Below, piece by piece: positions 2,100-33,955 of a stretch of DNA of 64,000 nt. The translations under genes and the position numbers were made by a program. Source of the DNA: Candidatus Staskawiczbacteria bacterium (GTDB lineage: Bacteria > Patescibacteriota > Minisyncoccia > Minisyncoccales > Staskawiczbacteraceae); assembly GCA_026395295.1 (NCBI GenBank), contig JAPLYZ010000007.1, positions 66,518 to 130,517 of the forward strand. Reading direction: 5' to 3'. The notes beneath the pieces were generated by a model. The model made no database searches and had not been told where the DNA came from. It saw nothing but the letters and a program-made list of their open reading frames with translations. Each line of letters opens with the position of its first letter. Position 1 is the stretch's first letter.

Positions 2100-2681
2100 A
2101 TGATTATAATAATAGGGCTGGGCAATCCCGGCGAACAATATAAAAATACCCGGCACAATGTCGGGTTTAACGCGATCGATAAAATCGCCACGAATTTTAA
2201 ATTTCCAATTTTCAATTTCCAATCAATTTCCAATTCAGAAATTTCTCAAAGTGAAATCTTGGGCAAGAAAGTCATGCTGGTCAAGCCTCAAACATTTATG
2301 AATGAGTCGGGGAAATCTGTAAAAAAAATACTATCAAAAAATAAAGACCAAGTTTCAAATATAATAGTCATACATGATGACGTTGACTTGCCGGTAGGTA
2401 AAATAAAAATTGTAGAAGAAAGAGGTTCAGCCGGACACAAGGGAGTTGAATCAATAATACAAAACATTGGAAACGACGGCCTAATAAGATTTCGCATCGG
2501 CATCGAATCAAAACAGTCCCGTGGTTCGGACTACAGGACTGAAGCAAAAGATATTGTGCTAAAAAATTTCTCAAAAGAAGAACAAAAATTAGTGGCTGAA
2601 ACTATTCAAAAAACAGTTGACGCCCTCGGTTTCTTTGTTGAACAAGGACTAGAAAAAACTATGAATGAATACAATAAGTGA
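2100..2681 (+). CDS. pth: peptidyl-tRNA hydrolase
   Basis: Internal start MIIIIGLGNPGEQY...TRHNVGF matches the Pth N-terminus. The ORF track starts further upstream at 2037. Contains a low-complexity segment encoded by TTTCCAA repeats. Confidence 0.85.
   Translation: MIIIIGLGNPGEQYKNTRHNVGFNAIDKIATNFKFPIFNFQSISNSEISQSEILGKKVMLVKPQTFMNESGKSVKKILSKNKDQVSNIIVIHDDVDLPVGKIKIVEERGSAGHKGVESIIQNIGNDGLIRFRIGIESKQSRGSDYRTEAKDIVLKNFSKEEQKLVAETIQKTVDALGFFVEQGLEKTMNEYNK
2194..2236. repeat. TTTCCAA(T) heptamer repeats inside pth coding sequence, encoding NFKFPIFNFQSIS
   Basis: atttccaa recurs three times with 3-4 nt spacers, in the coding-strand orientation. Confidence 0.6.
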
Positions 2682-4635
2682 AATAAATCAGTTACTGATA
2701 ACCGGCATTACCCCTTATTTTTTAGATAAGGAGTTTTTTTGGTTTCAAGAACATCTCCAAGAGGTGTTAGACGCGAGACATTCTCAAAATTTTTTTGAGG
2801 ACAATATAATTTTTTTGGAAAAGGATCACAGTTTCCAATTTTCACAATTTTTGAGAAAACTTGATGAAATGGGGTATGAAAGAGTTTTTAAGGTTTCTGA
2901 CCCCGGCGAATTTTCCCAACGTGGAGGCATAATTGACGTTTTTCCCATAAATTTAGCTAATGCTGTGCGTTTAGATTTTTTAGGAAACGAGGTTGATGGC
3001 ATAAGTCTGCTACCTATAAAAATTGACGACGAAAAAAAGGCAAAGGAACTGTTAAAGAAAAAATTAAAATCGCAAAAAATATTCTCTGAATTAAAAGGAT
3101 TAAAACCGGGAGATTATCTTGTACATCTTGATCACGGAATTGGAAAATTTACAGGCATAGAAAAATTTCAAACCGCAATTTCTGTGTTTCAGGAGTACTA
3201 TGTTCTAGAATACGCGCAAGAAGACAAGCTTTATGTGCCAGTTGGCTTAGAAAGAAAATTATCGAGGTACGTGGGGTTCCATGACCCAAAAATTTCGAGG
3301 CTGGGGTCTTCTCTGTGGCAAAAAACAAAACGAAAGATAAAAGAAGATGTTGAAAAATTAGCCAAAGAACTCTTGCAACTGTATGCGCAAAAAGAGATTA
3401 CAGAAAGAGCCCCTTATATAGAAGACAAGGAGCTTGAATCGCAACTTAAGTCCGGATTTATATTTCAAGAAACTCCCGACCAAACTCAAACGATAGAAGA
3501 TATTAAAGACGATTTACAGAAAACAAAACCAATGGACAGAATTGTTTGCGGAGATGTTGGATTTGGCAAAACAGAAGTGGCATTGAGAACGGCTCTGCTG
3601 GCTTGCGCCAACAACAGGCAAACAGCCCTAATATGCCCAACCACAATTCTGGCAAATCAGCACTTTAACTCTTTCAAAAAAAGGTTTGAGAAATTACCGG
3701 TCAGGGTTGCCTTGCTTTCAGGACTCCAGACAGCTTCAGAACAAACGAAGATTATAAAAGATTTGAAAGACGGTAAAGTAGACATTTTAATCGGCACCCA
3801 TCGACTTTTGTCAAAAGACGTGGATTTTAAAAACTTGCAACTTTTGATAATTGATGACGAGCAGAAATTCGGCGTTAAACAAAAAGAAAAACTAAGGCAA
3901 ATGAAAACAAGCTTAGACGTCTTGAGCCTGTCGGCCACCCCAATTCCCCGAACAATTTATTTAGCTCTTTCTTCTTTTAAAAACATAAGCCTAATGCAAA
4001 CTCCGCCAATTGGCAGACAGACTATAAAAACAGAAGTTTTGCCGTACAGTGAAAAAGCAATAAAAAAAATAATTGGCGCAGAGCTGAAAAGAAAGGGCCA
4101 GGTTTATTTTTTGCACAACAGGGTCCAAACTATTGAGGCGAAAGCAAAAGAGTTGGAAAAACTCTGCCCTAAATCGAAAATCAGTTTTATACACGGAGGA
4201 ATGCCAGAAAAAAAATTGATAAAAATAATGGACGAATTTCAAAAAGAAAAAACAAACGTGCTGGTTGCCACAACAATTATTGAGAACGGATTGGATCTGC
4301 CAAACGTAAATACAATTATAGTGGAAGACGCCACGCGACTTGGACTTTCTCAGGCGCACCAGATACGAGGCAGAGTTGGCAGGTCTGGAACGAAAAGTTT
4401 TGCTTACTTTATGTTCAGCGAAAAATCGCTGACGCCTTTGGCGAAAGAAAGGTTGAAGGCCCTGGAAGACGCGCAGGAATTGGGAGCCGGGTACAGAATC
4501 GCGATCAGAGACATGGAATTGAGGGGCGCCGGGAATATTTTAGGCAAAGAGCAATCAGGCGCCATAAACAGAATTGGCTTAAATTTATACAGCCAGATGA
4601 TATCAGAAGCAGTGGAGAAATTTAAGGTCTCCTGA
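2665..4635 (+). CDS. mfd: transcription-repair coupling factor, N-terminally short form
   Basis: Helicase motifs GDVGFGKTEVA, DEQKFGV, SATPIPRT and a C-terminal Mfd TRCF-like segment. Only about 290 aa precede motif I, so the UvrB-homology region appears absent. Confidence 0.8.
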   Translation: MNTISEINQLLITGITPYFLDKEFFWFQEHLQEVLDARHSQNFFEDNIIFLEKDHSFQFSQFLRKLDEMGYERVFKVSDPGEFSQRGGIIDVFPINLANAVRLDFLGNEVDGISLLPIKIDDEKKAKELLKKKLKSQKIFSELKGLKPGDYLVHLDHGIGKFTGIEKFQTAISVFQEYYVLEYAQEDKLYVPVGLERKLSRYVGFHDPKISRLGSSLWQKTKRKIKEDVEKLAKELLQLYAQKEITERAPYIEDKELESQLKSGFIFQETPDQTQTIEDIKDDLQKTKPMDRIVCGDVGFGKTEVALRTALLACANNRQTALICPTTILANQHFNSFKKRFEKLPVRVALLSGLQTASEQTKIIKDLKDGKVDILIGTHRLLSKDVDFKNLQLLIIDDEQKFGVKQKEKLRQMKTSLDVLSLSATPIPRTIYLALSSFKNISLMQTPPIGRQTIKTEVLPYSEKAIKKIIGAELKRKGQVYFLHNRVQTIEAKAKELEKLCPKSKISFIHGGMPEKKLIKIMDEFQKEKTNVLVATTIIENGLDLPNVNTIIVEDATRLGLSQAHQIRGRVGRSGTKSFAYFMFSEKSLTPLAKERLKALEDAQELGAGYRIAIRDMELRGAGNILGKEQSGAINRIGLNLYSQMISEAVEKFKVS

Positions 4636-4676
4636 AATTTTATGCTATTATAAATAAGTATTAACAAAAAAAACAC

Positions 4677-6725
4677 ATGAAAAGCTTAGTTATAGTTGAG
4701 AGCCCGACAAAGGCGAAGACAATTCAAAAATTTTTGGGAAGCGACTTTATTATCAAGTCGTCTTTTGGACATGTCAGAGATTTGCCCAAAAGAGAGCTTG
4801 GCGTTGATGTTGAAAACGGATTTCAACCAAAATATGTTATACCGACAAAGGCAAAAAAAGTTGTTGCTGAACTGAAAAAAGAATCAGCCAAGGCAGACAC
4901 CACCATACTGGCGACCGACGAAGACCGCGAGGGTGAATCAATTGCCTGGCACTTGCAAGAGGCCCTAAAATTAAAAGATCCTCAAAGGATTGTGTTTCAT
5001 GAAATTACCAAACCTGCAATAGAAAAAGCTCTTGAGAAGCCGAGGCATATTGATATGAATTTGGTCGATGCGCAACAGGCAAGACGCATTTTAGACAGAA
5101 TTGTGGGATACAAGATTTCGCCATTTCTATGGAAAAAAGTTGCCAAAGGTCTCTCGGCCGGTAGAGTACAATCAGTTGCCGTAAGATTAGTTGTAGAAAG
5201 AGAAAGAGAAATTGAAAAATTTGTCCCGACAGAATACTGGTCAATTGAAGCATTGCTAAAAAAGTTGGACAAAAAATTTAACGCCCTGTTGATAAAAAAA
5301 GACGATAAACCTGTTGAAAAGCTGGAAATTAAGAATAAAAATGAAGCAGATAAAATTTTACAAGATTTGAACAGCGCCGATTATATTGTTGAGTCTGTAG
5401 AAAAAAAGGAAACAAAAAGGTATCCTGCTCCCCCGTTCACCACAAGCACTTTGCAACAAGCGTCTTGGCAAAGATTTAAATTTTCGGCAAAAATGACAAT
5501 GTCCTTAGCTCAAAGGCTCTACGAAGAAGGAAACATTACCTATCACAGAACCGATTCATTGAATCTTTCTGAGATGTCTCTGGGTGAAGCCCAAAATTTC
5601 ATCACCGAAAAATATGGTCAAAATTATTGGGCAGGAAAAATAGTAAAATATAAAACCAAAGATAAGGGAGCCCAAGAAGCCCATGAAGCAATCAGACCGG
5701 CTTATGCCGACAAAACTCCCGAATCGCTAAAAGGCTTGGATGCCAGACAATTAAAGCTCTACACTTTAATTTGGCAAAGATTTATCGCCTGCCAAATGGC
5801 TCCTGCTATTTTCGATTCTGTTTTAACGGATATAAAAGCCCGTTCGACAAGCTCAGGACAAGCCGAAAGCTACACTTTCAGGGCCAACGGACAAACAGTG
5901 AAGTTTGATGGATTCTTGAAGGTTTACCCAACGAAAACCGAGGAAACAGAATTGCCCGACTTGGAAAAAAATGACAAATTAGATCTTTTGAAATTAAATT
6001 CTGTCCAGCATTTCACAGAACCGCCGGCAAGATACACGGAAGCCAGTTTGGTGAAAATTCTAGAGAAACACGGCATAGGCAGACCATCAACCTATGCGCC
6101 AATCATTTCCACCATACAAGACAGAAATTATGTCAGTAAAAACGACCAAAAAAGATTCTTTCCAAGCGAAATGGGAATAATAGTCAACGATGTTTTGGTA
6201 AAAAACTTCCCGGAAATTGTTGATGTTGATTTTACGGCAAAAATGGAAAAGGAGCTAGACGAAGTGGCTGACGGCAAAGACACATGGGAAAAAACTTGCA
6301 AAGATTTTTATAAACCATTCGCCAAAAATTTAGAGGAAAAATATAAAGAAGTGGTAAAATCCGATTTGATAAAAAAGACAGACAAGGTTTGCCCTAAGTG
6401 CGGAGCTCCCTTAATTGAACGGCTTGGGAGATTTGGCAGATTCTACGCCTGTTCAAAATTTCCGGAGTGCAAACACACAGAATCAGTTGAAGGAGACCCC
6501 GATACTTTGAATATAACCTGCCCAAAATGCAAAGAAGGAAAAATAACCGGAAAAAGGACCAGAAAGGGAAAAACATTTTATGGATGCGACCGTTTTCCAA
6601 AGTGCGACTTTGCTTTGTGGGATAAACCCATAAACGAATTTTGTCCGAAATGCGACTCTTTATTGATACAGAAAAGCAAAAACAAAATAAAGTGCTCAAA
6701 TAAAGAGTGCGATTATGTCAAATGA
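4677..6725 (+). CDS. topA: DNA topoisomerase I
   Basis: Toprim N-terminus MKSLVIVESPTKAKTI, catalytic core, C-terminal Cys4 zinc ribbons. Confidence 0.9.
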   Translation: MKSLVIVESPTKAKTIQKFLGSDFIIKSSFGHVRDLPKRELGVDVENGFQPKYVIPTKAKKVVAELKKESAKADTTILATDEDREGESIAWHLQEALKLKDPQRIVFHEITKPAIEKALEKPRHIDMNLVDAQQARRILDRIVGYKISPFLWKKVAKGLSAGRVQSVAVRLVVEREREIEKFVPTEYWSIEALLKKLDKKFNALLIKKDDKPVEKLEIKNKNEADKILQDLNSADYIVESVEKKETKRYPAPPFTTSTLQQASWQRFKFSAKMTMSLAQRLYEEGNITYHRTDSLNLSEMSLGEAQNFITEKYGQNYWAGKIVKYKTKDKGAQEAHEAIRPAYADKTPESLKGLDARQLKLYTLIWQRFIACQMAPAIFDSVLTDIKARSTSSGQAESYTFRANGQTVKFDGFLKVYPTKTEETELPDLEKNDKLDLLKLNSVQHFTEPPARYTEASLVKILEKHGIGRPSTYAPIISTIQDRNYVSKNDQKRFFPSEMGIIVNDVLVKNFPEIVDVDFTAKMEKELDEVADGKDTWEKTCKDFYKPFAKNLEEKYKEVVKSDLIKKTDKVCPKCGAPLIERLGRFGRFYACSKFPECKHTESVEGDPDTLNITCPKCKEGKITGKRTRKGKTFYGCDRFPKCDFALWDKPINEFCPKCDSLLIQKSKNKIKCSNKECDYVK

Positions 6726-8493
6726 TTTAGAAAAAATATTAAAGCAACTGACCGATAAAGCCCACCCCGTCATACGACGGGGTGCCCCATCGAATGATGG
6801 GGCAAAATTGATTTCTACGGCTTTTGAATTCGCGACACAAGCGTATAAAGAAAAAAATAGGCTGTCCGGAGAAAATTATATTTTTCATGCCGCAAGAGTC
6901 GCCTTGATGCTCGATAAAATGAACCTTGACTCAACGACAATTGCTTTTGGAATACTCCACGACGTTTTAGACGATACTCCTACCTCTGCCAAAAAAATAG
7001 AAATAAAAGAGATTGAAAAAAAGTTCGGGAAAGAAATGGGCCACTTGGTTGAGAAAACCTCAGAGTTAAGCAGGGTGAGATATTCTCTCATAATTGGAAT
7101 GAAAGACAAAAAGGCTTTTACAAAAGAGAAAGCTGAAAATCTGAGGAGAATGTTTCTTGCAATATCTGGAGACCTGAGAGTTGTCCTAATAGAGCTTTTA
7201 TCAAGATTAGACGGGCTAAACTTGTTGCACTATCTGCCGGAAGATAAACAAAAATTATTCTCTCTTGAAACTTTACAAATTTTCGTGCCGGTGGCTAACA
7301 GACTTGGCTTGTCTGAGATAAGAAGGAAGCTTGAAGACTTAGCCTTTTCTCATCTGTTCCCGGATAGGTTCAAGTGGCTGAAAGAAAACATCAAGAGCCA
7401 GTATGAAGAACGAGAAAAATATTTGAAGAAATTTATTCCTCGGCTAAAAAAAATATTGAGAAAAGAGGGGGTAAAAATTCTCGACATAAATTACCGTGCA
7501 AAATCTTATTGGAGCGCCTATCAGAAATTAATGAAACACCAGATGAACTTTGACGAAGTCCACGACTTGCTTGCGCTAAGAATAATTACGGCCGATGTTG
7601 AGAGTTGCTACAGGGTGCTAGGCATAATACATAAGCATTTTAAACCTATATCCGAAGAAATAAACGACTACATAGCGAAACCAAAGCCCAATGGTTACCG
7701 ATCGCTGCATACAACAATTTTCTCCAATGAAAACAAGATAACTGAGATTCAGATAAGAACAGATGAAATGCACAAAGAGGCAGAGTATGGTGTTTGCGCC
7801 CACTGGTCTTACAAAGAAAAAATAGACCTCAAAAAAGAAGGAAAAAACTTTGAGTGGGTGGAATCTGTTCCGGAGTTTTGGAAAACCTTTAAAATAGACT
7901 TTTTCGCGAATCAAGTTTTTACTTTTACCCCAAGAGGAGACATTGTTGTACTTCCCAAAAATTCAACTCCAATTGATTTTGCTTATGCGGTTCATTCAGA
8001 GATTGGAAATCATTGCGAATCCGCAAAAATAGACGGAAAAATTGTCCAGCTCGATAGCATCTTAAAAAACGGAGATGTGGTGGAAATATCCATTAATAAA
8101 AATAAAATCCCGTCAAAAGATTGGATGCGGTTTGTCAGAACATCTCTTGCGAAATCACATATAAAAAAGATAACAGGAGAAGACAAACCCGGCTTCAGGT
8201 TCCCATTACCGGAATTCATAAGAAAAAGAATCACAGAATTTTCCGAAGCCTCCAAAAAAAGACAGCAGGAGAGACAAAAAGCCAAAGAAGGAACTCCAAA
8301 ACAAATATATTTGGCAGGGCAAAAAGGAATGCTGACCCACATTGCCAAATGTTGCAATCCCCAGCCCGGCGACAAGGTTAGCGGGTATCTAGCCCAAAAC
8401 AGATCCGCTGTTTTGCACAAAACATCCTGCGACAATTTCAAAAAAATAGCTGAAAAATTCCCGGGGAAAATTGTCGACGCTTCATGGCAATAG
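6715..8493 (+). CDS. rel: bifunctional (p)ppGpp synthetase/hydrolase Rel/SpoT
   Basis: HD hydrolase domain (HAARVA...HDVLDDT), RelA/SpoT synthetase domain (YRSLHTT), TGS domain. The N-terminus carries an in-frame double-hairpin repeat. Confidence 0.85.
   Translation: MSNDLEKILKQLTDKAHPVIRRGAPSNDGAKLISTAFEFATQAYKEKNRLSGENYIFHAARVALMLDKMNLDSTTIAFGILHDVLDDTPTSAKKIEIKEIEKKFGKEMGHLVEKTSELSRVRYSLIIGMKDKKAFTKEKAENLRRMFLAISGDLRVVLIELLSRLDGLNLLHYLPEDKQKLFSLETLQIFVPVANRLGLSEIRRKLEDLAFSHLFPDRFKWLKENIKSQYEEREKYLKKFIPRLKKILRKEGVKILDINYRAKSYWSAYQKLMKHQMNFDEVHDLLALRIITADVESCYRVLGIIHKHFKPISEEINDYIAKPKPNGYRSLHTTIFSNENKITEIQIRTDEMHKEAEYGVCAHWSYKEKIDLKKEGKNFEWVESVPEFWKTFKIDFFANQVFTFTPRGDIVVLPKNSTPIDFAYAVHSEIGNHCESAKIDGKIVQLDSILKNGDVVEISINKNKIPSKDWMRFVRTSLAKSHIKKITGEDKPGFRFPLPEFIRKRITEFSEASKKRQQERQKAKEGTPKQIYLAGQKGMLTHIAKCCNPQPGDKVSGYLAQNRSAVLHKTSCDNFKKIAEKFPGKIVDASWQ
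6765..6803. repeat. double-hairpin repeat element (copy A) inside rel coding sequence
   Basis: CCCCGTCATACGACGGGG + GCCCCATCGAATGATGGGGC. A related copy lies at 54045-54086 with compensatory stem changes. Confidence 0.6.
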
Positions 8494-8503
8494 GCTCGGG
8501 TAA

Positions 8504-8532
8504 TTGAAAACTGGCGAAAAACATGATAGATT
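8504..8532 (+). promoter_or_regulatory. sigma70-like promoter upstream of tRNA-Leu 5' fragment / GIY-YIG / tRNA-Leu unit
   Basis: TTGAAA -N17- TAGATT, about 9 nt before the G that starts the tRNA-like sequence at 8542. Confidence 0.35.
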
Positions 8533-8541
8533 ATAAGCAAT

Positions 8542-8605
8542 GCCGAGGTGGCGGAATTAGCAGACGCACGGGACCTGCCTGCCGGCAGGCAGGCTCAAAA
8601 TCCCG
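8542..8605 (+). other. partial duplicate of tRNA-Leu 5' half (acceptor, D-arm, anticodon stem/loop) with a 20-nt palindromic hairpin inserted in the anticodon loop
   Basis: 8542-8574 is identical to 8851-8883. A 20-nt CTGCCTGCCGGCAGGCAGGC insertion sits between loop positions 32 and 33, followed by TCAAAATCCCG. The T-arm and acceptor 3' strand are missing. Confidence 0.6.
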
Positions 8606-8613
8606 ATACGCAT

Positions 8614-8850: not shown

Positions 8851-8934
8851 GCCGAGGTGGCGGAATTAGCAGACGCACGGGACTCAAAATCCCGCGACAG
8901 CAATGTCATGAGGGTGCAACTCCCTCCCCCGGCA
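8851..8934 (+). tRNA. tRNA-Leu (anticodon CAA), type II with long variable arm
   Basis: Cloverleaf folded by hand: acceptor GCCGAGG/CCCCGGC (one A-C mismatch), anticodon loop CTCAAAA, long variable arm. The T-loop TGCAACT is non-canonical with G at position 55. Discriminator A; CCA not encoded. Confidence 0.75.
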
Positions 8935-8936
8935 CA

Positions 8937-8976
8937 ATCAAAAAGCGAGTCATCACCATTTGACCCGCTTTTTATT
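8937..8976. terminator. hairpin + T-run between tRNA-Leu and the convergent MBL-fold gene (bidirectional terminator candidate)
   Basis: AGCGAGTCA..TGACCCGCT stem followed by TTTTTATTT. Confidence 0.4.
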
Positions 8977-8983
8977 TGATTCA

Positions 8984-17370: not shown

Positions 17371-17430
17371 GTTCCAAAAATTACATTACAAACAACTTTG
17401 TAGATACTTTTTCACACTTTCTTACAGATA

Positions 17431-17460
17431 CTTTTTAATTTGCGACCGCAGAATAAAAAG
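17431..17460. repeat. palindromic repeat family P36, degenerate copy (core GCGACCGCAGAA)
   Basis: CTTTTTAATTTGCGACCGCAGAATAAAAAG. The core is the reverse-complement form of TTCTGCGGTCGC. Confidence 0.5.
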
Positions 17461-17484
17461 TATTCAACATATCTTACACTTTTC

Positions 17485-18057: not shown

Positions 18058-18084
18058 ATTTTAATTATATCACAACAATCCAAA

Positions 18085-18120
18085 ATACGCCAAATTCTGC
18101 GGTCGCAGAATTTGGCGTAT
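18085..18120. repeat. palindromic repeat family P36 copy (perfect 17-nt arms)
   Basis: ATACGCCAAATTCTGCGGTCGCAGAATTTGGCGTAT, about 30 nt upstream of the PaaX-like gene start. Confidence 0.7.
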
Positions 18121-18143: not shown

Positions 18144-18986
18144 CTAAATGCGAAACAATTTTTTGGCGTTATCCGTGGTTTTATCCGCGACTTCTTGAAA
18201 AGTCATACCCTTTAAGTCTGCTATTTTTTGGATAACGTGTTTTACAAAAATCGGCTCATTCCTGCCAGCCTCCGCCAAAGCTACGGCGGCCAAGGGCGTT
18301 AGATAGGGGCAATCTGTCTCAACCAAAATTTTGTCCAGCGGAGTTTTTTCAATCACCTCCTTCAAATCCAATTTATCAATTATTCCATTAATGCCTAAGT
18401 AAAAACCTAGTTCCATATATTTCTGCGCCTCTGCCCAATTGCCGGTAAAACAATGAATCGTGCCTATAACTTTTTTGTTTGCCAAAATTTCTAACACGTC
18501 TTGATGCGCCATGCGACAATGAATGATCACAGGCAAGTTTAATTCTTCTGCCAATTCTAACTGTTGTATGAAAACTTTTTTCTGTTTCTGCTTAAATTGT
18601 TCTGTTTTGGTTTTACTTTTTGGTTTGTAATAGTAGTCTAAACCAATCTCGCCGATTGCTACCACCCGCCTTCGCCCTCCGGGCTTCGGCAGGGCAAGCT
18701 TTTTATAATTTTCGTAATTAAATTCTTCGCCAAGCGGTTCAAACGCGCCCTCCTCTTCGTCCATTCTTAATTTCAGTAAGTCTGTTTTTATATGGATAGG
18801 ATGCATTCCAATTGCAGCAAAAATTCCTTCATTCTTTTCAGCCAGTTCAACAGCTCTCTTTGAAGTTTCATATTTTGTTCCAACATCAATACAAAGCAAG
18901 CCTGCTTGTTGACAGCGTTTTACAACCTCCTCCCTATCAGCATCATACGCTTTGAAATTTAAATGACTATGCGTATCAATTATCAT
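18144..18986 (-). CDS. tatD: TatD family hydrolase
   Basis: MIIDTHSHL start; conserved His/Asp metal ligands. Confidence 0.85.
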   Translation of the reverse strand: MIIDTHSHLNFKAYDADREEVVKRCQQAGLLCIDVGTKYETSKRAVELAEKNEGIFAAIGMHPIHIKTDLLKLRMDEEEGAFEPLGEEFNYENYKKLALPKPGGRRRVVAIGEIGLDYYYKPKSKTKTEQFKQKQKKVFIQQLELAEELNLPVIIHCRMAHQDVLEILANKKVIGTIHCFTGNWAEAQKYMELGFYLGINGIIDKLDLKEVIEKTPLDKILVETDCPYLTPLAAVALAEAGRNEPIFVKHVIQKIADLKGMTFQEVADKTTDNAKKLFRI

Positions 18987-18988
18987 TT

Positions 18989-20458
18989 CTATTTAGCAAT
19001 TCTGGGAAACAAGTTCTCTGCTTTTTGGGTATCAACGGCCTTTTTTATTTTTTCGGCGGTTTCGGGTAAAAATGGTTCAAGCAGAACTCCAATTTCTTCT
19101 ATGGCTAAAAATAAATCGTTTATGATTTCTAATTTTTTTGCCTGCCCTGAGCTTGTCGAAGGGGTCTCCCACAATTTTTCTTCGTTTATGTATTTATCGC
19201 AAGCGCTTATAATTTCCCAAACAGCTATAAGCGCCTCGTTGAATTTGAAACTCTCCACCGCCAACTTATATTTTTTTTGTTCTTCTTTTATCTTTTTTTG
19301 TAAATTGAAATTTGAAAATTTATTGGAAATTGGAAATTGGAAATTGGAAATTTTCGTTGCTATTCCCAGCACTCTCGCCACCAAATTGCCTATGCCGCCG
19401 GCCAGGTCTGAATTGTATCTTTGTTCAAACTTTTCATAAGTAAAATCGCCGTCTTCCGTTGGAAGAATTTCTCGCAACAAATAATATCTAACTGCGTCAA
19501 CTCCATACTTTTTGACCAACTCAAACGGGTCAACCACATTTCCCAGGCTTTTAGACATCTTCTGCCCGGCAACATTAATAAACCCGTGCACAAAAATTGT
19601 TTTTGGCAATTCCAACCCGGCTGACAAAAGCATCGCCGGCCAAAAAATAGTATGAAATTTCATTATATCTTTTCCTATGCAGTGAACATTTGCCGGCCAT
19701 AATTTTTTAAATTGATCTGTTTCTTCTTCATATCCTATGGCCGAAATATAATTCGGCAAAGCGTCCATCCAAACATATAGGTTCTGCGAGGGGTCTTCAG
19801 GCACCGGCCAACCCCAATATTTATCTTTCATCCTTGAAAAACTAACATCTTCCATGCCCTGTTTTAACATGGACAAGGTCTCATTTTTTTTACCCTCCGG
19901 AACAATTTCCAGCTCTCCACTATTAATCCTTTTTTCAATCTCCTTTGTGTATTTTGAAAGCCTGAAAAAATAGTTTTCTTCTTCAACCAGTTCCAATTTT
20001 TTTAAATGTATCGGGCATTTTCCGTCTATTATTTCCCGATCCGTTTTGAAGGCTTCGCATCCCGGACAATAAAAGCCTTTGTACTTTTTCTTGTAAATAT
20101 CTCCACTTTTTTCTAATTTTTTCCAAAGCTTCTCCACTGCCGGCTTATGCCTGACTTCATCGGTTGTTCTGATAAAATCGTCGTTTGAGACGTTCAAAAC
20201 TTTAACAATATCCTTAAACTTTCCGGACATTTCGTCAGCAAAATCTTTGACATCTCGACCGGCTTCTCTTGCCACTCTCAATGTTTTAATCCCATGCTCA
20301 TCAGTGCCGGTTAAGAAAAAAACATCTTCTCCTAAACCTCTGTGATATCTGGCTAAAACATCTGCCTGAACCGCTTCCAACGCAAAACCAATGTGCGGAG
20401 GCGCATTTGTATATGGTATACTGGTAGTAACGTAGAACTTTTTGCTTTTATTTGTCAT
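18989..20458 (-). CDS. metG: methionyl-tRNA synthetase
   Basis: PYTNAPPHIGF (HIGH), KMSKSLGN, Zn knuckle CPGC..C. Contains two in-frame repeat insertions. Confidence 0.9.
   Translation of the reverse strand: MTNKSKKFYVTTSIPYTNAPPHIGFALEAVQADVLARYHRGLGEDVFFLTGTDEHGIKTLRVAREAGRDVKDFADEMSGKFKDIVKVLNVSNDDFIRTTDEVRHKPAVEKLWKKLEKSGDIYKKKYKGFYCPGCEAFKTDREIIDGKCPIHLKKLELVEEENYFFRLSKYTKEIEKRINSGELEIVPEGKKNETLSMLKQGMEDVSFSRMKDKYWGWPVPEDPSQNLYVWMDALPNYISAIGYEEETDQFKKLWPANVHCIGKDIMKFHTIFWPAMLLSAGLELPKTIFVHGFINVAGQKMSKSLGNVVDPFELVKKYGVDAVRYYLLREILPTEDGDFTYEKFEQRYNSDLAGGIGNLVARVLGIATKISNFQFPISNKFSNFNLQKKIKEEQKKYKLAVESFKFNEALIAVWEIISACDKYINEEKLWETPSTSSGQAKKLEIINDLFLAIEEIGVLLEPFLPETAEKIKKAVDTQKAENLFPRIAK
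19145..19164. repeat. intragenic 21-nt element (CCCTGAGC-NN-GTCGAAGGG) in metG, encoding ETPSTSSGQAKK
   Basis: One of four copies, all in the same orientation relative to the coding strand. Confidence 0.65.
19300..19353. repeat. TTGGAAA heptamer tandem repeat (x4) inside metG, encoding NFQFPISNKFSNF
   Basis: ttggaaattggaaattggaaattggaaatt; the coding strand reads TTTCCAA. Confidence 0.65.
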
Positions 20459-25220: not shown

Positions 25221-25343
25221 GGTATCTATTTTTTTAATTTAGTTTATCTTACCTCTTAAATCGCCGAAATTCAACCTTTCACCCTCTTCAAAACAAAAAG
25301 CGAGCCGAATGATAAAATTGTCTCGCCTTAGTCTAAAAGCCAG

Positions 25344-25379
25344 ATACGTTTAATTCTGCGGTCGCAGAATTAAACGTAT
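25344..25379. repeat. palindromic repeat family P36 copy (perfect 17-nt arms)
   Basis: ATACGTTTAATTCTGCGGTCGCAGAATTAAACGTAT, just downstream of the hss stop codon. Confidence 0.7.
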
Positions 25380-25405
25380 TTGATGTTTTTACTATTTTTT
25401 TTATT

Positions 25406-26854
25406 TTATGGTAAAGTTAGAAAGTTTTTGAATTGCCAGGGGTCTGGGTCGGGCGTGCTTGCCGGGTTTTCCGGAAAGAAAACCGTCCTGCTTTTCAGAG
25501 GGGTCCAATCGCTTGCTTTGGAAATTAAATTTCCCAAATATGGTTTGGCTACTTTTAAAACATAATCGTGTGGCAAGTCTTCGGGCGAGCAAAGTCCTTT
25601 TTTAGGATTATCAATCATCCATTCTATGGCCCCCAAAAGTCCGGCGGCAACCTGCAAAGTTGTGGCATTCTTACCCTTAATTATTTTTCTTGTTTGCTCA
25701 ATGCTTAAAGAAGTTCCTGTCCACCAAGAATTGTAATCGTGCCCCATTAAAAATGCCCCCAAAATGTCTTTGCCCGAAGTTATGTCATCTGTCATTGTTC
25801 TTAATTTCGGTTGCATTATATATCGCCGGGCTTTTAATTCCACCAAAGACGAAAGAGCTTCGTGACAAGGCATATAAACATAATGAACAGTTGGTCTGTA
25901 AATGGCTTTTCCGCTTTGATCTCGCACAGTAAGCCTGTCCGAAATTCCAAAAGCTTCGCCGTGCCTGACAATCATTCCTTCTATTTCGCCAACCTCCGGA
26001 ACCCAAGACCTTGCCCAAGTATTTATTCCCATTCTGGCTAAAAAAATCTGGTTGTCGGGACCAATAACAGGTTTCTCGGCCAGCAGGGGCAATTCTTTTT
26101 CGTGCGTACCCCAGCCCATTTCCGAGGGAGCTGTTCCTTCTTCGTGAAACCCCGGGATAGACCAAGTGTTCACAAACTCATTTACCTGCTTTGGTTTGTT
26201 TGTAATTTGAGTATCTCTCTCCGAGCAATGAATAACCTTCACCCCAAGTTTTTGCGCCAGCCTCGGAAAATCTTTTTTATTTTTATATTCAAGCAATTCT
26301 TCTAAGTCTTTGCCTAGAATCTTTTTATCTTTGACCAGCTTGTCGGCAATATCCAGCAATCCCTTTTTCACAAAGTGCGATATTAACCCCGGGTTTGCGC
26401 CGTGGTCAATAACTGCTGTGGCTGAATCTTTCGGCCAAGTTTTTATCATTTCCCTCAAGCTCATCTGACGGGAATGCAAAGTTTTGCTGTAAACAGTCGG
26501 CAAATTGTTGGTGTCCCATAATTCCACGGAAGTATTTATGTATAAATTGTTGTGGTCATGGCACCATTTTATAATGTCATCTGCTCCTATGTTCCAGGCA
26601 AGGTCTATGACAAATCCGTTATCGCCGGCGTACTTTGTCATCACAGCATTTAAATTCTCTGGAGTAATCCTTTTTCTGTAATACTTCAAGCCCTTTTTTG
26701 TAAAAGGTTTCAATTGCTCCAATTTATTTTCAAAATCAATTATGGTTATATTTTTCAATGGAACATCCACGTGTTTTAAAAATAGAGGAAGCGTGCACTG
26801 TGCGACTGCGCCATAACCTAAAATTGTAATTTTTCCGTTAAATTTTTTGGACAT
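25406..26854 (-). CDS. hss: homospermidine synthase
   Basis: Aligns along its full length with bacterial HSS (ITILGYGAVAQCTLPL; DHGANPGLISHFVK; ERDTQ...VNTWS..GF; C-terminal DPWQFKNFL). Confidence 0.85.
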   Translation of the reverse strand: MSKKFNGKITILGYGAVAQCTLPLFLKHVDVPLKNITIIDFENKLEQLKPFTKKGLKYYRKRITPENLNAVMTKYAGDNGFVIDLAWNIGADDIIKWCHDHNNLYINTSVELWDTNNLPTVYSKTLHSRQMSLREMIKTWPKDSATAVIDHGANPGLISHFVKKGLLDIADKLVKDKKILGKDLEELLEYKNKKDFPRLAQKLGVKVIHCSERDTQITNKPKQVNEFVNTWSIPGFHEEGTAPSEMGWGTHEKELPLLAEKPVIGPDNQIFLARMGINTWARSWVPEVGEIEGMIVRHGEAFGISDRLTVRDQSGKAIYRPTVHYVYMPCHEALSSLVELKARRYIMQPKLRTMTDDITSGKDILGAFLMGHDYNSWWTGTSLSIEQTRKIIKGKNATTLQVAAGLLGAIEWMIDNPKKGLCSPEDLPHDYVLKVAKPYLGNLISKASDWTPLKSRTVFFPENPASTPDPDPWQFKNFLTLP

Positions 26855-26855
26855 T

Positions 26856-28046: not shown

Positions 28047-28164
28047 TAATTTTTAATTTTAAATTTCTAAATTATTTTATTCTACTCTTTCCAAAATTAA
28101 ATTTCAATATCATTTTTATCCGTATAAAAAAATTCCCAATGTTCGGCAAAGCGTTCACTGGGAC

Positions 28165-28743: not shown

Positions 28744-28878
28744 AGTCAGCTCCTTTCTGTAAATTATTTTTTAATGTGCATTGAATTTATATTACATCGT
28801 TAAAACAATTTGTCAACAAACCGCACCCAAAAAATCGGCTCAAATGATGGAAATAATACGCCTTAGTCTCAGAGTCAA

Positions 28879-28914
28879 ATACGTTTTATTCTGCGGTCGC
28901 AGAATTCAGCGTAT
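28879..28914. repeat. palindromic repeat family P36 copy (imperfect arms)
   Basis: ATACGTTTTATTCTGCGGTCGCAGAATTCAGCGTAT, upstream of the HD gene. Shares the CGCCTTAGTCT flank with the 25344 copy. Confidence 0.65.
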
Positions 28915-28990
28915 CTGATATTTTCAATTGTTAATTGATTTATTTTGCTTTCTTAAAAATCAAATTTCCATTTATTGCTTTCGATCATAT

Positions 28991-29400
28991 AAAAAAATGC
29001 GCACGTCCTTTTGGTCGTGCGCTTTGTGCCAACTTGGAATGTTTCATCCTTCGCGAGACAGTCGGCGTGCCTATGGTCAGAAGACCATCCGTTGTTTCCC
29101 ATAAAAGCGTGAGCTCATACGGGTGATAAAATCCCTGTTCTCGGGGGTACAGCGGCGATTCCCTAAAAAGCAAAACCACTTTGTTCCTTGCGCATCTGTC
29201 CCTACCTAGTATGGAGGTATCAGCGCAAAATTCTGCTTTTCTGAAGAACAGCACCCACATGGCAGCACGGGTTTTCCCTTTTTATACCCGAAGGGTTCCC
29301 CGTGTGTGGGCTTTGAGCATACCAGGATTTTAGCGGGCGATGATATATCTCATAGGCATATCCTTTCTTGTCAAAGAGCAAACCATTTGCTCCGTACCTT
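28991..29400 (-). ncRNA. unassigned structured ncRNA candidate (GC-rich island, no plausible ORF)
   Basis: About 50% GC in a roughly 37% GC genome. Candidate promoter TTGACA -N17- ATTATA near 29430 on the minus strand. Clean terminator GCGCACG..CGTGCGC + T7 at 28991-29022. Only spurious ORFs cross it. Confidence 0.35.
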
Positions 29401-29484
29401 TATAATAATCCTAATCCCTATTTTGTCAAAACAAAAACCCAAAAGAATAACTTCGGACTTTGTTTCTAGAAAAATAAACCTTTT

Positions 29485-31146
29485 TTATTGGACGATGCCG
29501 CCGCCGGAGTTGGCAAAGTCATCTGGCAAGCTTGTGGTTATTCCAGAATCTTGGGCCGTGATAGTTGTATTTGTAAACTGGTTTTCTCCTGAAATTTGAG
29601 CCTGACCTATAAGAGGCGCCTGTGATCCTTTTTGCGAATTGGTCGGAGTAAGAGAAACTTGGAAAGAAAGAGAAATTGGGTCACCGGTCACCCCTGTTCC
29701 AGCCTGCACATCGCCAACTGACCAAACAATTTCGCGACTGGCTGAATCAAAAGAAAAATTTGATAACTCGTCCTGCGGCATAATTTTTCCGGTCAAACTT
29801 ACATTTGCCGGCAGAATTGCTTTTAACTTAACGTTTTTGGCGTCGCTGAAATAATTTTTAATTTCCCAATTTATTGTGTAAGTGGTTGCTTTGCCTGCCT
29901 GCGGAGGAATTGGTCCGGAATTGGAAATGTCGGAGCTCTGATAATATGCTCTTTGAGAAATCACCAACCCTGAGCTTACTTTTATTGTGAACTTTTGGGT
30001 TATCTGAGAAATATTTACTTCGTCAGTAATAACAGTGTTACTTGCGTCAATCGCCGACGAACTCCAGTTGTCTTTCACCTTCACGTTAAAATCAACTTCG
30101 CCTTGCTGCTGAACAGCCAAATGACTTAACTGCGAAGACTGGCTGTGGTCCCAAATAATCATGTTATCATTTTGCTGGACTTGACCTCCCGCCTCGGCTT
30201 GCAAAGTAGACAAATCCAAAGCCGGGCTGTCAATTTTTGCCACCAAAAATAAATCTTCAAAAGGGGTTGACCCAACATTGGTGAAAAAAATCTGATAATG
30301 AAGGGTCTCGCCGGGTTTGGCAACATAAGAAGATGAACTATTAACCAGCTGGGAAATAAACAGCAACGGCTGTATTGCCTGCGCAGTAACGCTGGCTTCT
30401 TTCACAACAATAAAACTTCCGTTCTGCCACATTCCCAGTTTCGCCGAAAAAATTAAACTCTGGCTGGTAGCTGCCGAAATTCTGCCCGAGATTGTAATTC
30501 TTCCTCCTTGCGCCTTGTTCAAGGTTTGCAGTTTCCATTCTAAATTATCCAAAGACTTCGGGTCAGATGATATAAAATCAAAACCGGGCATAGGGTCAAC
30601 TTTTATGCTCAAATTTTCCAGCGGATAGTTTACATTGGAAAAATAATTAATTGAGTACTGTAAATTTTTTCCTTGCTCCACCTTAGTTGGCAAATCGAAA
30701 TCCAAAGTAATAGGGCTTGCATCAATTTTAGTTATAAAAGTTGTGTCCGACTCGTAGGTGGCTGTTATATTTTTGGGCACATAAGAAAGCGATGCTTTGG
30801 CGGTTTTCAAATCTCCATCTTTGCCCAAAAGTCTGGCTTTAATTTTTACCGACTCCTGACCTCCAGGATATATATCTTTTAAACTCTGCACAAACATTGT
30901 CCTGCTGTCTTCGGTCAGAGAGTTGTCCGGCAAAATAAAAACTAACTTCGCTTTCTCTAAAACAAAGTTGCCGTTATTTTTGTATTGCACTGTATATTCT
31001 ATCTCGTCTCCTATTTTGGCTGTGCTGGGCCCAAAAATTTCCAGCCTCAAAATTTCTTTTGAAAACATACTGCTCTTGTAATACAAGAACACCGCCAACA
31101 CCACTATTATAATTATAAACAAAATTAAAAGTATTTTTTTCGCCAT
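29485..31146 (-). CDS. cell-surface protein with N-terminal TM anchor and DUF11-like (CARDB-like) repeats
   Basis: Signal-anchor followed by repeated beta-rich modules (Y.I...N.G pattern). Confidence 0.55.
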   Translation of the reverse strand: MAKKILLILFIIIIVVLAVFLYYKSSMFSKEILRLEIFGPSTAKIGDEIEYTVQYKNNGNFVLEKAKLVFILPDNSLTEDSRTMFVQSLKDIYPGGQESVKIKARLLGKDGDLKTAKASLSYVPKNITATYESDTTFITKIDASPITLDFDLPTKVEQGKNLQYSINYFSNVNYPLENLSIKVDPMPGFDFISSDPKSLDNLEWKLQTLNKAQGGRITISGRISAATSQSLIFSAKLGMWQNGSFIVVKEASVTAQAIQPLLFISQLVNSSSSYVAKPGETLHYQIFFTNVGSTPFEDLFLVAKIDSPALDLSTLQAEAGGQVQQNDNMIIWDHSQSSQLSHLAVQQQGEVDFNVKVKDNWSSSAIDASNTVITDEVNISQITQKFTIKVSSGLVISQRAYYQSSDISNSGPIPPQAGKATTYTINWEIKNYFSDAKNVKLKAILPANVSLTGKIMPQDELSNFSFDSASREIVWSVGDVQAGTGVTGDPISLSFQVSLTPTNSQKGSQAPLIGQAQISGENQFTNTTITAQDSGITTSLPDDFANSGGGIVQ

Positions 31147-31270
31147 AGTTTTTTATATGTTAAATTCGTTATTTTTTTGTATAGCTATTGACAAGGACAT
31201 ATAAAATGATAACATTAACTTACTAAACGTGGGGCGGATTCTATATGAGTCCGTCCCATTTACTTTTACT

Positions 31271-31921
31271 TTATTTTTTCTTATCTTCCATTTTCAGCAT
31301 ATATTTCAAATATTCAAAATCCCTAAAATTGCTTCCTGCGAACTGACGAATTTCTCTGGCAGTCCTTGGTCCTCTGGCTAAAACTACAACTTCTTTTTTC
31401 TGCTCTCTCAGATATTTCAAAACCGGTAAAAAATCACCATCGCCAGATAAAACTATAATCTTATCAAAATTATCCATTTCTTTCATCAGATAAAAAGTCA
31501 TGTCAACATCGCAATTTGCTTTCCTCTTGCTTACTAACATCTGTTGGTCTTCGTCATAATCATAATATAATTTTACCGGCTTTAAATGCAACTCATAGCC
31601 GAAACTTTTTAATTTCGAATAAAATTTTATCCTCTTTAGATGCCGATTTATCAATATCAATTTTACGTCATCAAGTTTATCGCTTTTGTTTTTTATCTTG
31701 TCCAATAAATGTCTTGCCACATCTTCAATCGGCACAGTATCTTGAAGTAGATAATTATAGTTGAAATCATATATTTCCGCCCCGCCAAAATACAACGCCC
31801 TTGATATACCATATTTTTCTTTCAAGTAATTCAAAAGCTTCTGATAGTCAATTTTCCAGCCTAAACTTTTCTCCCCGCCATAAAAAAGATTAGAAGCATC
31901 AATAAAAACAAACGTCCTCAT
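31271..31921 (-). CDS. NYN domain (LabA-like PIN-related) protein
   Basis: FIDASNL..., LSGDGDF acidic motifs typical of NYN/LabA. Confidence 0.7.
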   Translation of the reverse strand: MRTFVFIDASNLFYGGEKSLGWKIDYQKLLNYLKEKYGISRALYFGGAEIYDFNYNYLLQDTVPIEDVARHLLDKIKNKSDKLDDVKLILINRHLKRIKFYSKLKSFGYELHLKPVKLYYDYDEDQQMLVSKRKANCDVDMTFYLMKEMDNFDKIIVLSGDGDFLPVLKYLREQKKEVVVLARGPRTAREIRQFAGSNFRDFEYLKYMLKMEDKKK

Positions 31922-31954
31922 ATTTTTATTCTACTGCACTTTAACCAAAAAAGC

Positions 31955-31985
31955 GAGCTTAAGCTCGCTTTGTTAAGCTCTCTTT
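31955..31985. terminator. palindromic hairpin flanked by A- and T-runs (bidirectional terminator candidate)
   Basis: AAAAAAGCGAGCTTAAGCTCGCTTTGTT. Confidence 0.4.
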
Positions 31986-32148
31986 TATTCGTTAACCTAA
32001 TCTCAATTCCATTATTGCATAGAATTTATTAAAAGTAAAAAAAGAAGCGGTCTTCCACAAGGTGAGTTGTGAAAAACCGCTTTTTGGCCGCGAACGAAAG
32101 ATTCAAGGAATAAGAATTCGAAAGAATCAAGCGTTTGAGGCTTGAGGG

Positions 32149-33147
32149 TTACTGCGAGACGAACCCCGACGCAGAGCCGAAGTTGTCGCTCGGGCTGGAC
32201 ACATCGTCCGCGCCGAACTTGGCCTCGACGCTGAAGCCGAAGTACGGAGCGTGGCCGAACCGACCATCGCAGTCATCGGAGAATTCGTCGCCGGCCATGT
32301 CCATGTCCAGCTCTTCCCAGCGAACGAGGCGTTCCGGATGAACCAGAACGATTGAGCCTCCAGCGACGCTGGTAAGGCCGTACTCGCCCTTGGTGAAAGA
32401 TTCGCGTGCGAGACCGACGCAGTATCCGCCCCAACGCTTACCGAGCTGGCAAGCCTGAATACGGAAATCGCCTTGCTGTTGGTCCCGCATCTTCTGCATA
32501 ACTTCCCGAGTGTGCTGAGAGACGCGGATGTGAGCCGCGTCAATCTGGTTTTCGCGCCAGTTCGTGAACGAACGCGATTCGGCAATCTTCTGAAAGATGA
32601 GCTGCAGCGCCCGGCAGTACATCTCGGCGGGGTCTTTGACCTCGGGAAAATACTTTCGGGATAGCGCATCCTCCCACGGAACAAGGAATGCTCCTTCCAC
32701 CCAATTAGGTAGTGCGATTTTCTGCTGCACGTCCCTGTAGTAGCGAAACGCAGGTTCGGGGTCGAACCCGGGAAAATGCCGAAGCATCACCTCTGCCTGT
32801 TGCTGCATGGATTTGGGACCCTTGTACTCGCGCGGATAGTCGTAGGCCGGCCGAACCTTCTTACCCGCGTACTTGCTCTGTGGAGCGCGATGCTCCTCTA
32901 TCCAAGTAGCGATGTGTTCGGAGAGGCCAGGCGTGTCGTTAATACGCTGAGCTTCCCCTTCTGTACCATCTGACAAGCCGGCTTTATCGTAAGCGGCTGT
33001 CACGATTGACACGAACTTGAGACCTTTCGAGTCCCGTGATGTGACTGACGGAGCCAATTTTTGCATCGGAGCCATCCTTTCTACCGCGTTAAACGCGGTT
33101 TTCAATGTGCGTGTTGCGAATGCCCCGCAACAGGGCGTCCTAAACAT
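32149..33147 (-). CDS. hypothetical protein on a GC-rich (about 58% GC) foreign-looking segment
   Basis: Sharp GC and codon-usage shift (GC3-rich codons) confined to the ORF body. Putative extended -10 TGnTATAAT at 33166-33176 (minus strand). Terminator hairpin + T-run at about 32033-32079. Start is ambiguous (33147 or 33075). No recognisable family. Confidence 0.5.
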   Translation of the reverse strand: MFRTPCCGAFATRTLKTAFNAVERMAPMQKLAPSVTSRDSKGLKFVSIVTAAYDKAGLSDGTEGEAQRINDTPGLSEHIATWIEEHRAPQSKYAGKKVRPAYDYPREYKGPKSMQQQAEVMLRHFPGFDPEPAFRYYRDVQQKIALPNWVEGAFLVPWEDALSRKYFPEVKDPAEMYCRALQLIFQKIAESRSFTNWRENQIDAAHIRVSQHTREVMQKMRDQQQGDFRIQACQLGKRWGGYCVGLARESFTKGEYGLTSVAGGSIVLVHPERLVRWEELDMDMAGDEFSDDCDGRFGHAPYFGFSVEAKFGADDVSSPSDNFGSASGFVSQ

Positions 33148-33190
33148 TGTGTTCAGTATGCATTTATTATATCAAATAGTGGTTTTTATG

Positions 33191-33955
33191 TCAATGGTGA
33201 TAATTATTTTTGGAGGAATGGCCGGACAATATGTAAGCATAATAATTTTCGGAAACGTTTTCAAATAATTTTTGGCTGGACACCTCAATTTTTAATTTTG
33301 ACAGCATCTGCCAATCCTTCTTAAAAATCAATCTGAAAATTTTCACGATATCAGAATTTATCTTGGTCGCAGAGGCGTCGTGTCCTAAACACTTTTTGCA
33401 AATAGTCCCGCCAATTTTATCGGAAAAATAGATTGCGTATGGATTAAGTTTCTGCTGACATATATTACATTTTTCCACCTGAGGATGGTAACCCAACAGA
33501 GAAAGGAGACTCCACAAAAAATAATAATACAAAGCTTGGAACTTGGAACTTGGAACTTGGAACTTATCCAGCGTGGTAAATGTTTCGTTTAATAAGTTGA
33601 AGACATTTTCATCTTTTTGCTCGCCTTTTATAAAATTATCTAAAACTTCGCCTATTCTATTGGCAGTTTTAAATTTTTCTAAATCCTGCCAGACATTATT
33701 GAATTTTTCTGTTGCCACCGCATCTGTGAGAGTCTTTCGCGTCTTGCCCTGTATAAATTCTATCTCCGACATAAAAAAAATATCAATCCCGCTTCTTAGC
33801 TTAGAGGCTGTTTTCCTTATAGCCTTGCCAAAAATTTCCAGCCTGCCGAATTCTTCGGTAAAAACAGAAAAAAACCTGTCCGACTCGCCCATGTCGCTTT
33901 TCTTAAAAACAAAAGCTCTTGTTTTATATTTTAAAGCCATGCTATTTGATGCCAC
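33191..33955 (-). CDS. recO: DNA repair protein RecO
   Basis: OB-fold N-terminus and Cys4 zinc motif (CNICQQK...CKKC). Contains an in-frame heptamer repeat. Confidence 0.8.
   Translation of the reverse strand: MASNSMALKYKTRAFVFKKSDMGESDRFFSVFTEEFGRLEIFGKAIRKTASKLRSGIDIFFMSEIEFIQGKTRKTLTDAVATEKFNNVWQDLEKFKTANRIGEVLDNFIKGEQKDENVFNLLNETFTTLDKFQVPSSKFQALYYYFLWSLLSLLGYHPQVEKCNICQQKLNPYAIYFSDKIGGTICKKCLGHDASATKINSDIVKIFRLIFKKDWQMLSKLKIEVSSQKLFENVSENYYAYILSGHSSKNNYHH
33534..33564. repeat. CTTGGAA heptamer tandem repeat (x4) inside recO, encoding KFQVPSSKFQ
   Basis: cttggaacttggaacttggaacttggaactt; the coding strand reads GTTCCAA. Confidence 0.65.

Follow-up and report, generated by a model that had tools for sequence, protein, structure and literature searches.

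Heptanucleotide arrays in housekeeping genes of a Candidatus Staskawiczbacteria bacterium as probable products of slippage in a 7-nt register

Introduction

In many prokaryotes, heptanucleotide repeats are the commonest long simple sequence repeats (SSRs) among units of 5-11 nucleotides (nt), and their proposed source is polymerase slippage (Mrazek 2007, as relayed in PMC4679880 and PMC4692102). The cases described there come mostly from intergenic DNA and from genomes that are large or GC-rich, and non-triplet units are reported to be rare in genes. Here we analyse a stretch of 64,000 nt, hereafter the window, from Candidatus Staskawiczbacteria bacterium (Candidate Phyla Radiation (CPR)/Patescibacteria; GCA_026395295.1, JAPLYZ010000007.1 positions 66,518-130,517, forward strand), in which the genes pth, metG and recO carry short heptamer arrays in frame. 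These arrays share with the described SSRs the tandem 7-nt units beyond chance, the dominance of period 7 and slippage as the presumed cause. In contrast to them, they and their counterparts in related genomes lie almost entirely in housekeeping genes of a ~1-Mb, AT-rich, 91%-coding genome and are held at ~31-32 nt. We consider the arrays likely to be heptanucleotide microsatellites that slippage in a 7-nt register has generated and homogenised, and on which reading frame, stop codons and the tolerance of loops have then acted as filters.

Two described families resemble the arrays in consisting of few-unit heptamer arrays scattered over the genome, namely GGGAATC/GGGGAYT of Xanthomonas and Nostoc (PMC4692102) and TAACTGA of Beggiatoaceae and cyanobacteria (PMC4679880). 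For GGGAATC, a preference for four units is reported (PMC4692102). As these accounts describe them, both families have one dominant unit per genome, lie between genes near starts or stops, are under-represented in coding DNA and have been assigned a possible G-quadruplex or translational role. The present arrays, in contrast, have many units, a coding location and no predicted structure.

Cyanobacterial short tandemly repeated repetitive (STRR) sequences have the units CCCCAGT, TTGGTCA and CAACAGT and are intergenic elements of heterocystous cyanobacteria; the window arrays differ from them in units, host phylum and coding location. Rickettsia palindromic elements are dispersed palindromes of conserved sequence and, like other in-frame mini-insertions, represent short repeated DNA tolerated in frame in surface loops of conserved proteins. 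In comparison, the heptamer arrays are direct repeats and form no hairpin, and a GC-rich element of ~23 nt in the window is the better analogue. The neuO gene of E. coli K1 is accessory, is carried by a phage and serves surface modification; its array is 5', long and highly polymorphic, and slippage shifts the copy number by whole units. The likeness to our arrays is a 7-nt unit within an open reading frame (ORF) that is kept in frame only at certain copy numbers. Here, by contrast, essential genes are the hosts of short, internally placed arrays that stay stable among near-identical strains. Phase variation at a heptanucleotide repeat in the neuO coding region is a subject of PMC13001214 and PMC9659370.

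As a rule, mid-coding sequence is purged of non-triplet microsatellites (PMC3315296). Here they are the dominant tandem repeat, nearly all of them inside the housekeeping genes of a minimal genome. Our literature search found no earlier description of heptamer arrays of the present kind.

Heptamer arrays in the window

An earlier note on this DNA had placed short heptamer arrays in pth, metG and recO. All three were found, two of them as perfect 31-nt arrays and the one in pth in decayed form. The host genes and arrays are as follows.

2100..2681, + strand: host gene pth (peptidyl-tRNA hydrolase)
2193..2250, + strand: decayed heptamer array of TTTCCAA/TTTTCAA units, pth residues 32-45, peptide NFKFPIFNFQSISN
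18989..20458, - strand: host gene metG (methionine--tRNA ligase, MetRS)
19295..19353, - strand: metG heptamer array, coding strand (AATTTCC)x4.4 plus decayed tail, MetRS residues 369-387, peptide ISNFQFPISNKFSNFNLQ
33191..33955, - strand: host gene recO
33535..33565, - strand: recO perfect array, coding strand (AAGTTCC)x4.4, residues 131-140, peptide KFQVPSSKFQ

The perfect part of the metG array spans 31 nt, (ATTGGAA)x4.4 at 19322-19352, and a decayed period-7 tail widens it to the interval listed; the recO array, read on the forward strand as (CTTGGAA)x4.4, is perfect over its whole 31 nt. Apart from these two, the window contains no perfect period-7 array of 2.5 or more copies, and none of its other perfect tandem repeats with periods of 4-15 is as long. 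The pth array is imperfect, with exact TTCCAA at 2203, 2217 and 2228, and pth of a relative (L212) carries a homologous decayed array. Allowing at most one mismatch, the two-unit pattern TTCCAANTTCCAA has 8 matches in the window, whereas 100 shuffles gave 2.0 on average and never more than 7. The window arrays are real and highly non-random.

In all three arrays, TTCCAA is read on the coding strand, in the form NTTCCAA that the note had given, and the low-complexity peptides agree with those it had listed. A Pfam search confirms Pth, MetRS and RecO as the hosts, and the best database matches of the three proteins are 100%-identical proteins from a Candidatus Staskawiczbacteria metagenome-assembled genome. 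Long ORFs run antisense across the metG and recO arrays (18963-19439, + strand, 158 amino acids (aa); 33543-33968, + strand, 141 aa), and neither has a Pfam match. The unit TTCCAAN contains no stop codon in any of the six frames, and these ORFs are probably phantom by-products of repeats that are stop-free in six frames.

A period-7 excess in related genomes

We compared the window with 80 metagenomic loci encoding MetRS relatives at 57-83% identity, which together with the window comprise 1.05 Mb. Among perfect tandem arrays that reach 24 nt or more, 34 have period 7, and all other periods from 4 to 15 together account for 7. At least 17 canonical units are represented among the 34 (for example AATTTCC, AAATTCC, AAAATCA, AAAATTC, AAGTCAA and AAGTTAC), 33 of the 34 lie within long ORFs, and all are 24-35 nt long. 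This multiplicity of units, together with the dominance of period 7, identifies the phenomenon as the heptanucleotide class of long SSRs. The features of that class are found here as head-to-tail perfect units beyond chance, over-representation of period 7 and, in one case (L221, see below), a copy change by a whole unit.

Two further in-frame heptamer arrays lie in the window.

35319..35352, - strand: in-frame heptamer array of AAAGTTA/AAAGTTG type, peptide KLKVKSIKLKV, in a class-I aminoacyl-tRNA synthetase gene (34966..37863)
59713..59744, + strand: in-frame heptamer array of AGCTACA type, peptide SYKLQDKSYKL, in uvrB (59017..60969)

A scan for the pattern (TTCCAAN)x4, with one genome per species, returned at least 120 loci from many phyla. 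Of the 120 matches listed, 30 belong to the CPR. The arrays there measure 29-38 nt and are located within long ORFs, most often with TTCCAAT as the unit; the reading is NFQFPISN at 24 of these 30 loci and the reverse, WKLEIGN, at six. Period 7 prevails over other periods in the loci of these listed matches, with 6 versus 0 arrays in the CPR and 45 versus 14 elsewhere, and other heptamer units are also common there. We conclude that the window arrays exemplify a general excess of heptamers and do not constitute an element peculiar to TTCCAA. Arrays of at least four TTCCAAN copies occur, again among the matches listed, in Bacteroidota, Verrucomicrobiota, Planctomycetota, Acidobacteriota and others, at a GC content of up to 0.73; outside the CPR they reach 19 copies and lie mostly outside long ORFs.

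Arrays occupy hypervariable loops

Alignments of 120 orthologues each for MetRS, RecO and Pth place all three arrays in hypervariable, indel-rich loops, and close orthologues of each protein lack the arrays. The MetRS array is situated between the catalytic Pfam domain (ending at residue 364) and the anticodon domain (starting at residues 385-389), where it aligns with a short loop in the solved Aquifex MetRS structure. Counted from the motif GNLVARVLGIA, this loop measures 35-36 aa at baseline, 38-43 aa when encoded by heptamers and 41 aa in the window. The loops of RecO (TLDKFQVPSSKFQALYYYF versus KLNDQNLNNKKYALLYYYF in an orthologue) and Pth (NFKFPIFNFQSISN versus KNNFPEFKLQKKSN) are unchanged in length, with loops 5-8 aa shorter in more distant RecOs. 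At site A of LeuRS, an array has likewise formed in place in a segment of constant length. The proposal that the segments are insertions is thus borne out partially, in metG, whose loop is longer by about 5 to 7 aa, and not in recO and pth.

Array length is constrained in the coding arrays of the clade

Perfect period-7 runs in the clade are bimodal in length; they peak sharply at 31-32 nt and form a shoulder at 17-20 nt, and between the two lies a trough at 21-30 nt. The trough for perfect coding arrays lies at 3.4-4 copies, and 14 of the 16 runs of 30-34 nt fall at 31-32 nt. Total lengths of imperfect arrays peak at 31-33 nt, and three reach 52-53 nt. In other phyla, heptamer arrays taken independently of the search pattern, most of them non-coding, instead decay stepwise, with 76 at 17-21 nt, 24 at 24-28 nt and 14 at 30-34 nt (2.4-3, 3.4-4 and 4.3-4.9 copies). 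The difference between the clade and the other phyla is significant by Fisher's test, both for the 4.4- versus the 3.4-copy class (p=0.036) and for the concentration at 31-32 nt (p=0.007). The stepwise decay rules out an intrinsic four-unit preference of heptamer arrays, and it identifies the 30-33-nt mode seen among pattern matches as a sampling effect.

These data support a constraint on total array length in the coding arrays of the clade. A length of 31-32 nt equals one unit, 3-4 nt of microhomology and 21 nt, and would fit expansions that become visible only as frame-preserving steps of three units. Perfection of the arrays had been taken earlier to imply either selection on total length or recent origin. 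The first alternative is borne out by the sharp peak of coding arrays; the second is too simple, as the arrays appear to be old at their sites and to be kept perfect through homogenisation.

Unit turnover and slippage

At a given site, the unit changes from lineage to lineage. Perfect arrays in the MetRS loop consist of AATTTCC, AATTTTC or ATCCAAA, those in LeuRS of AAATCTC or AAATTTC, and the RecO loop carries AAGTTCC in the window, TTACCAG in L193 and two copies each of CAATTTA and CAATTTG in L163. The recO gene of L121 has a degenerate AATTYCN array at the same site and of the same length as the perfect window array. The window unit AAGTTCC is a one-base variant of the AATTTCC-type array of a relative and is present in all copies; its occurrence in every unit at constant length indicates that the variant spread over all units by concerted evolution. 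Degenerate arrays often contain identical adjacent units (L182, L164, L161), and block patterns of the form t1 t1 t2 t2 occur. Neighbouring units are more alike than in shuffled unit order (p=0.02), in a test that is biased by how the arrays were detected.

The expectation that a copy-number change would frameshift the gene is realised in one relative. In L221 (a 43-kb contig, ENA ERZ27293393), metG at 1501-2930 equals that of L126 except for one single-nucleotide polymorphism and the loss of 7 nt, that is, one unit. The gene is broken at the junction of the catalytic and anticodon domains into ORFs of 384 aa and 72 aa. This -7 allele is a direct slippage product. No other array length variant was found, and the near-identical pairs L126/127, L184/186 and L189/192 have identical arrays. 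The truncated Pth proteins P0385 and P0386 were considered as further frameshift alleles and rejected as contig-end fold-back or low-quality artefacts.

Proposed origin of the arrays

We postulate that DNA synthesis misaligns preferentially in a 7-nt register, which would create tandem heptamers and copy one unit over its neighbours. This step is read from the patterns described above, and the -7 allele provides its one direct observation. Since ~91% of the genome is coding, the arrays land in genes. Survivors would be those in tolerant surface or inter-domain loops that contain no stop in the sense direction and whose net length change is in frame, leading to ~31-32 nt. Units with a sense-strand stop are excluded because a heptamer array of at least three copies is translated in all three phases; this filter is a weak one, as the stop-free share of the heptamer probability mass is 52%. 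The likeness of the three window units to NTTCCAA would then reflect a common family of A/T/C-only units encoding N/F/Q/P/I/S/K loop peptides, not a shared function. The arrays would also be preferred sites for other small insertions. They are probably slightly deleterious passengers, because each slip by ±7 nt frameshifts an essential gene.

Two further ideas were considered and set aside. Slip-out hairpins are rejected since the arrays do not fold, and a -1 frameshift at a "slippery heptamer" fits only the AAATTTC unit of one relative, not the window arrays, and was judged coincidental. The window encodes a family-X DNA polymerase with a PHP domain (45792-47570, - strand), a candidate for short-patch synthesis, whose gene is interrupted by a GC-rich element.

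Several observations weigh against a slippage origin of this kind. The observed sense-strand units consist of 47% A, 22% C, 4% G and 27% T, whereas the stop-codon filter predicts ~24% G, so that the filter explains the TTCCAA-like units only in part. Even where neither strand of the unit contains a stop, the A/C-rich sense orientation outnumbers the opposite one by ~6:1, a bias that may stem from selection for hydrophilic N/K/S/Q/P loops or from a strand-asymmetric mutation process. A perfect 4.4-unit array must moreover arise inside an essential gene, although each single step is a frameshift. The earlier note had asked whether array length varies among strains in multiples of 21 nt, and no ±21-nt polymorphism was present between the near-identical strains compared. 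Finally, metG of the window and of L121 are 78% identical, with four-fold sites near saturation (40 of 100 identical), yet the two share a stretch of 39 identical nt around the array. Three clades, namely window/L121, L126/127 and L146 (the latter with 60% aa identity), possess near-identical MetRS loops of 58 nt that are missing from the sister lineages of each. The 39-nt identity, the L146 loop and the patchy distribution on the MetRS tree need recombination or a self-correcting homogenisation, and recombination is demonstrated only for the pair L184/L185.

A stronger version of the slippage origin may be framed, although we hold it to be less likely than not. CPR bacteria may possess a strongly 7-nt-register form of templated misalignment in replication or repair that rewrites ~31-nt arrays in permissive loops of essential genes. 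Jumps of +21 nt, in-place conversion of units, a G-free, strand-asymmetric sense signature and the use of arrays as preferred landing or break sites for GC-rich mini-insertions would all belong to this process. If it exists, the CPR would offer a natural system for finding the enzyme behind the long-noted heptanucleotide excess of prokaryotes.

The slippage origin has several consequences. It would provide a mechanistic source for many lineage-specific loop insertions in CPR proteins, and the arrays mark fragile positions at which essential genes can be split, as in the one natural -7 allele. Under the frame constraint, the steps and register of slippage can be read off the sequence alone, and this could help to test the old proposal that the heptamer excess stems from a 7-nt polymerase footprint. 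Caution is needed in annotation and assembly, as low-complexity peptides, phantom ORFs on the antisense strand and chimeric joins can occur at arrays.

Recombination and the mobile-segment alternative

The shared loops raise the alternative that the arrays are mobile or cassette-like segments of ~31-58 nt that did not arise locally but spread between lineages and loci through recombination, through ectopic gene conversion or through some unknown means of insertion. The near-identical MetRS loop DNA in three separate clades with sister lineages devoid of it, and the nearly constant array size, would be expected of such segments. So would the resemblance between the window's own pth and metG arrays, which are 78% alike over 58 nt in complementary orientation. 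In addition, one database protein (P0362, JGI, on a 1857-nt contig) turns from MetRS into MurC-like sequence exactly within the heptamer array, a MetG-MurC chimera that is either an assembly product or the result of ectopic recombination. The unit diversity among the 34 perfect arrays leaves no single conserved sequence to be mobilised, however, and the recO, pth and LeuRS site A arrays replace existing sequence. No inverted repeats, hairpin or target duplication were found at the arrays.

The pair L184/L185 also bears on this question. The two are 97% identical but have unrelated loops (42 versus 35 aa) within a patch of raised divergence of ~170-200 nt. At first sight this favours a moving segment, but the patch is a homologous-recombination tract, that is, ordinary exchange of a gene segment and not transposition. 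The flanks of the other shared MetRS loops follow the host clade, so these loops do not demonstrate transfer. On balance, we regard spreading segments as rather unlikely.

Functional, phase-variable and artefactual alternatives

A shared function was suggested by the earlier note as an RNA motif or flexible linker, and may be framed as a repeated DNA or mRNA binding site, with, for example, one OB-fold, cold-shock-type or CsrA-type protein per heptamer, or as a selected linker. The nucleotide-level identity between divergent lineages and the recurrence of (TTCCAAN)n across many phyla would suit such a role, as would a consistent sense orientation and G-free composition that would leave the mRNA unstructured. 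Binding of heptamer repeats by proteins of this type has been the subject of speculation (PMC4679880). Against this, units vary by locus and lineage and the encoded peptides vary freely, close orthologues are wholly without arrays, and many other heptamer units are equally present in other phyla. The minimum free energy of the arrays is 0 kcal/mol on both strands, and in an Rfam search of the window only the transfer-messenger RNA (tmRNA) and two tRNAs were matched, the arrays matching no family. A shared RNA, DNA or peptide function is not supported, nor is a TTCCAA-specific element, and we hold any such function to be quite improbable.

The -7 allele of L221, which splits metG naturally, could be taken as the mark of a contingency switch in which slippage by ±1 unit toggles the host gene as in neuO, and non-triplet SSRs in coding regions are a classic device of phase variation (PMC3315296). 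The hosts, however, are essential housekeeping genes (aminoacyl-tRNA synthetases, Pth, UvrB, RecO) rather than dispensable ones for surface, restriction or modification functions, and the arrays have only ~4 units and lie in mid-protein, not at the N-terminus. They are identical in the near-identical strain pairs and in 10 assemblies, the latter picked by identical protein sequence. This stability among near-identical strains, the essential nature of the hosts and the internal position of the arrays make phase variation very unlikely.

Some truncated or chimeric database proteins do arise at contig ends near arrays, but an assembly or sequencing artefact, which the earlier note had asked to exclude, is of negligible probability, given that 31-nt arrays are far shorter than reads or k-mers, that the pth locus is base-identical in the 10 independent assemblies retrieved by identical protein, and that homologous arrays with ORFs open through them recur at the same sites in many independent metagenomes and studies.

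Small insertions within and beside the arrays

The suggestion that these sites are hot spots for small insertions is upheld by the hypervariability of the loops and by GC-rich mini-inserts within the arrays of orthologues. In recO of L213, a perfect (AATTTCC)x4.4 array of 31 nt reappears once a 42-nt GC-rich insert is excised in silico, and in pth of L215 the excision of a 30-nt GC-rich insert likewise yields (AATTTTC)x4.4, perfect over 31 nt. A perfect 31-nt array is restored in these two of five cases, the other three being less clean. A systematic composite element of heptamer arms and a GC-rich core was considered and rejected, with only 3 matches in 1.05 Mb. At L153 (6647-6743), a GC-rich hairpin of 50 nt is bordered on either side by a heptamer array; the two arrays are inverted relative to each other, and the whole makes up one long composite inverted repeat.

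In addition to its array, metG contains a second, unrelated kind of small insert.

19140..19162, - strand: GC-rich ~23-nt element in metG, in frame (PSTSSGQAKK), patchy among MetRS orthologues and outside any array

This element (CCTTCGACAAGCTCAGGGCAAGC and variants) also occurs at 5841-5863 (+ strand) and 46651-46673 (- strand), with a related pair at 41942-41966 and 45725-45749. Besides MetRS, it is in frame in TopA (RSTSSGQAES), the family-X polymerase (PSTGSGRARQ) and two other ORFs, where none would be expected by chance.

Other features of the window and its relatives

In the relative with 70%-identical Pth (L211/L212, 1572-2579), pth is followed immediately downstream by genes for a reverse transcriptase (RVT_1) and bAvd, an arrangement that resembles a diversity-generating retroelement and is absent from the window. 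A 332-aa ORF without a Pfam match (32149-33147, - strand) adjoins recO. It forms the only stretch of raised GC content (0.46 versus ~0.38) and may be foreign DNA.

An intergenic palindrome family (AAATACG..AATTCTGCGGTCGCAGAATT..CGTAT), similar to repetitive extragenic palindromes or terminators, occurs at 17425-17464, 18083-18120, 25341-25383 and 28875-28917. Two of its copies lie in a 112-nt repeat that is 75% identical between 25295-25406 and 28830-28941. An exact 33-nt copy of the 5' end of tRNA-Leu(CAA) (8542-8574 versus 8851-8883) is located 309 nt upstream of the gene and may be an integration or duplication remnant. The tmRNA gene lies at 43398-43752 (+ strand) and scores 109 bits in Rfam.

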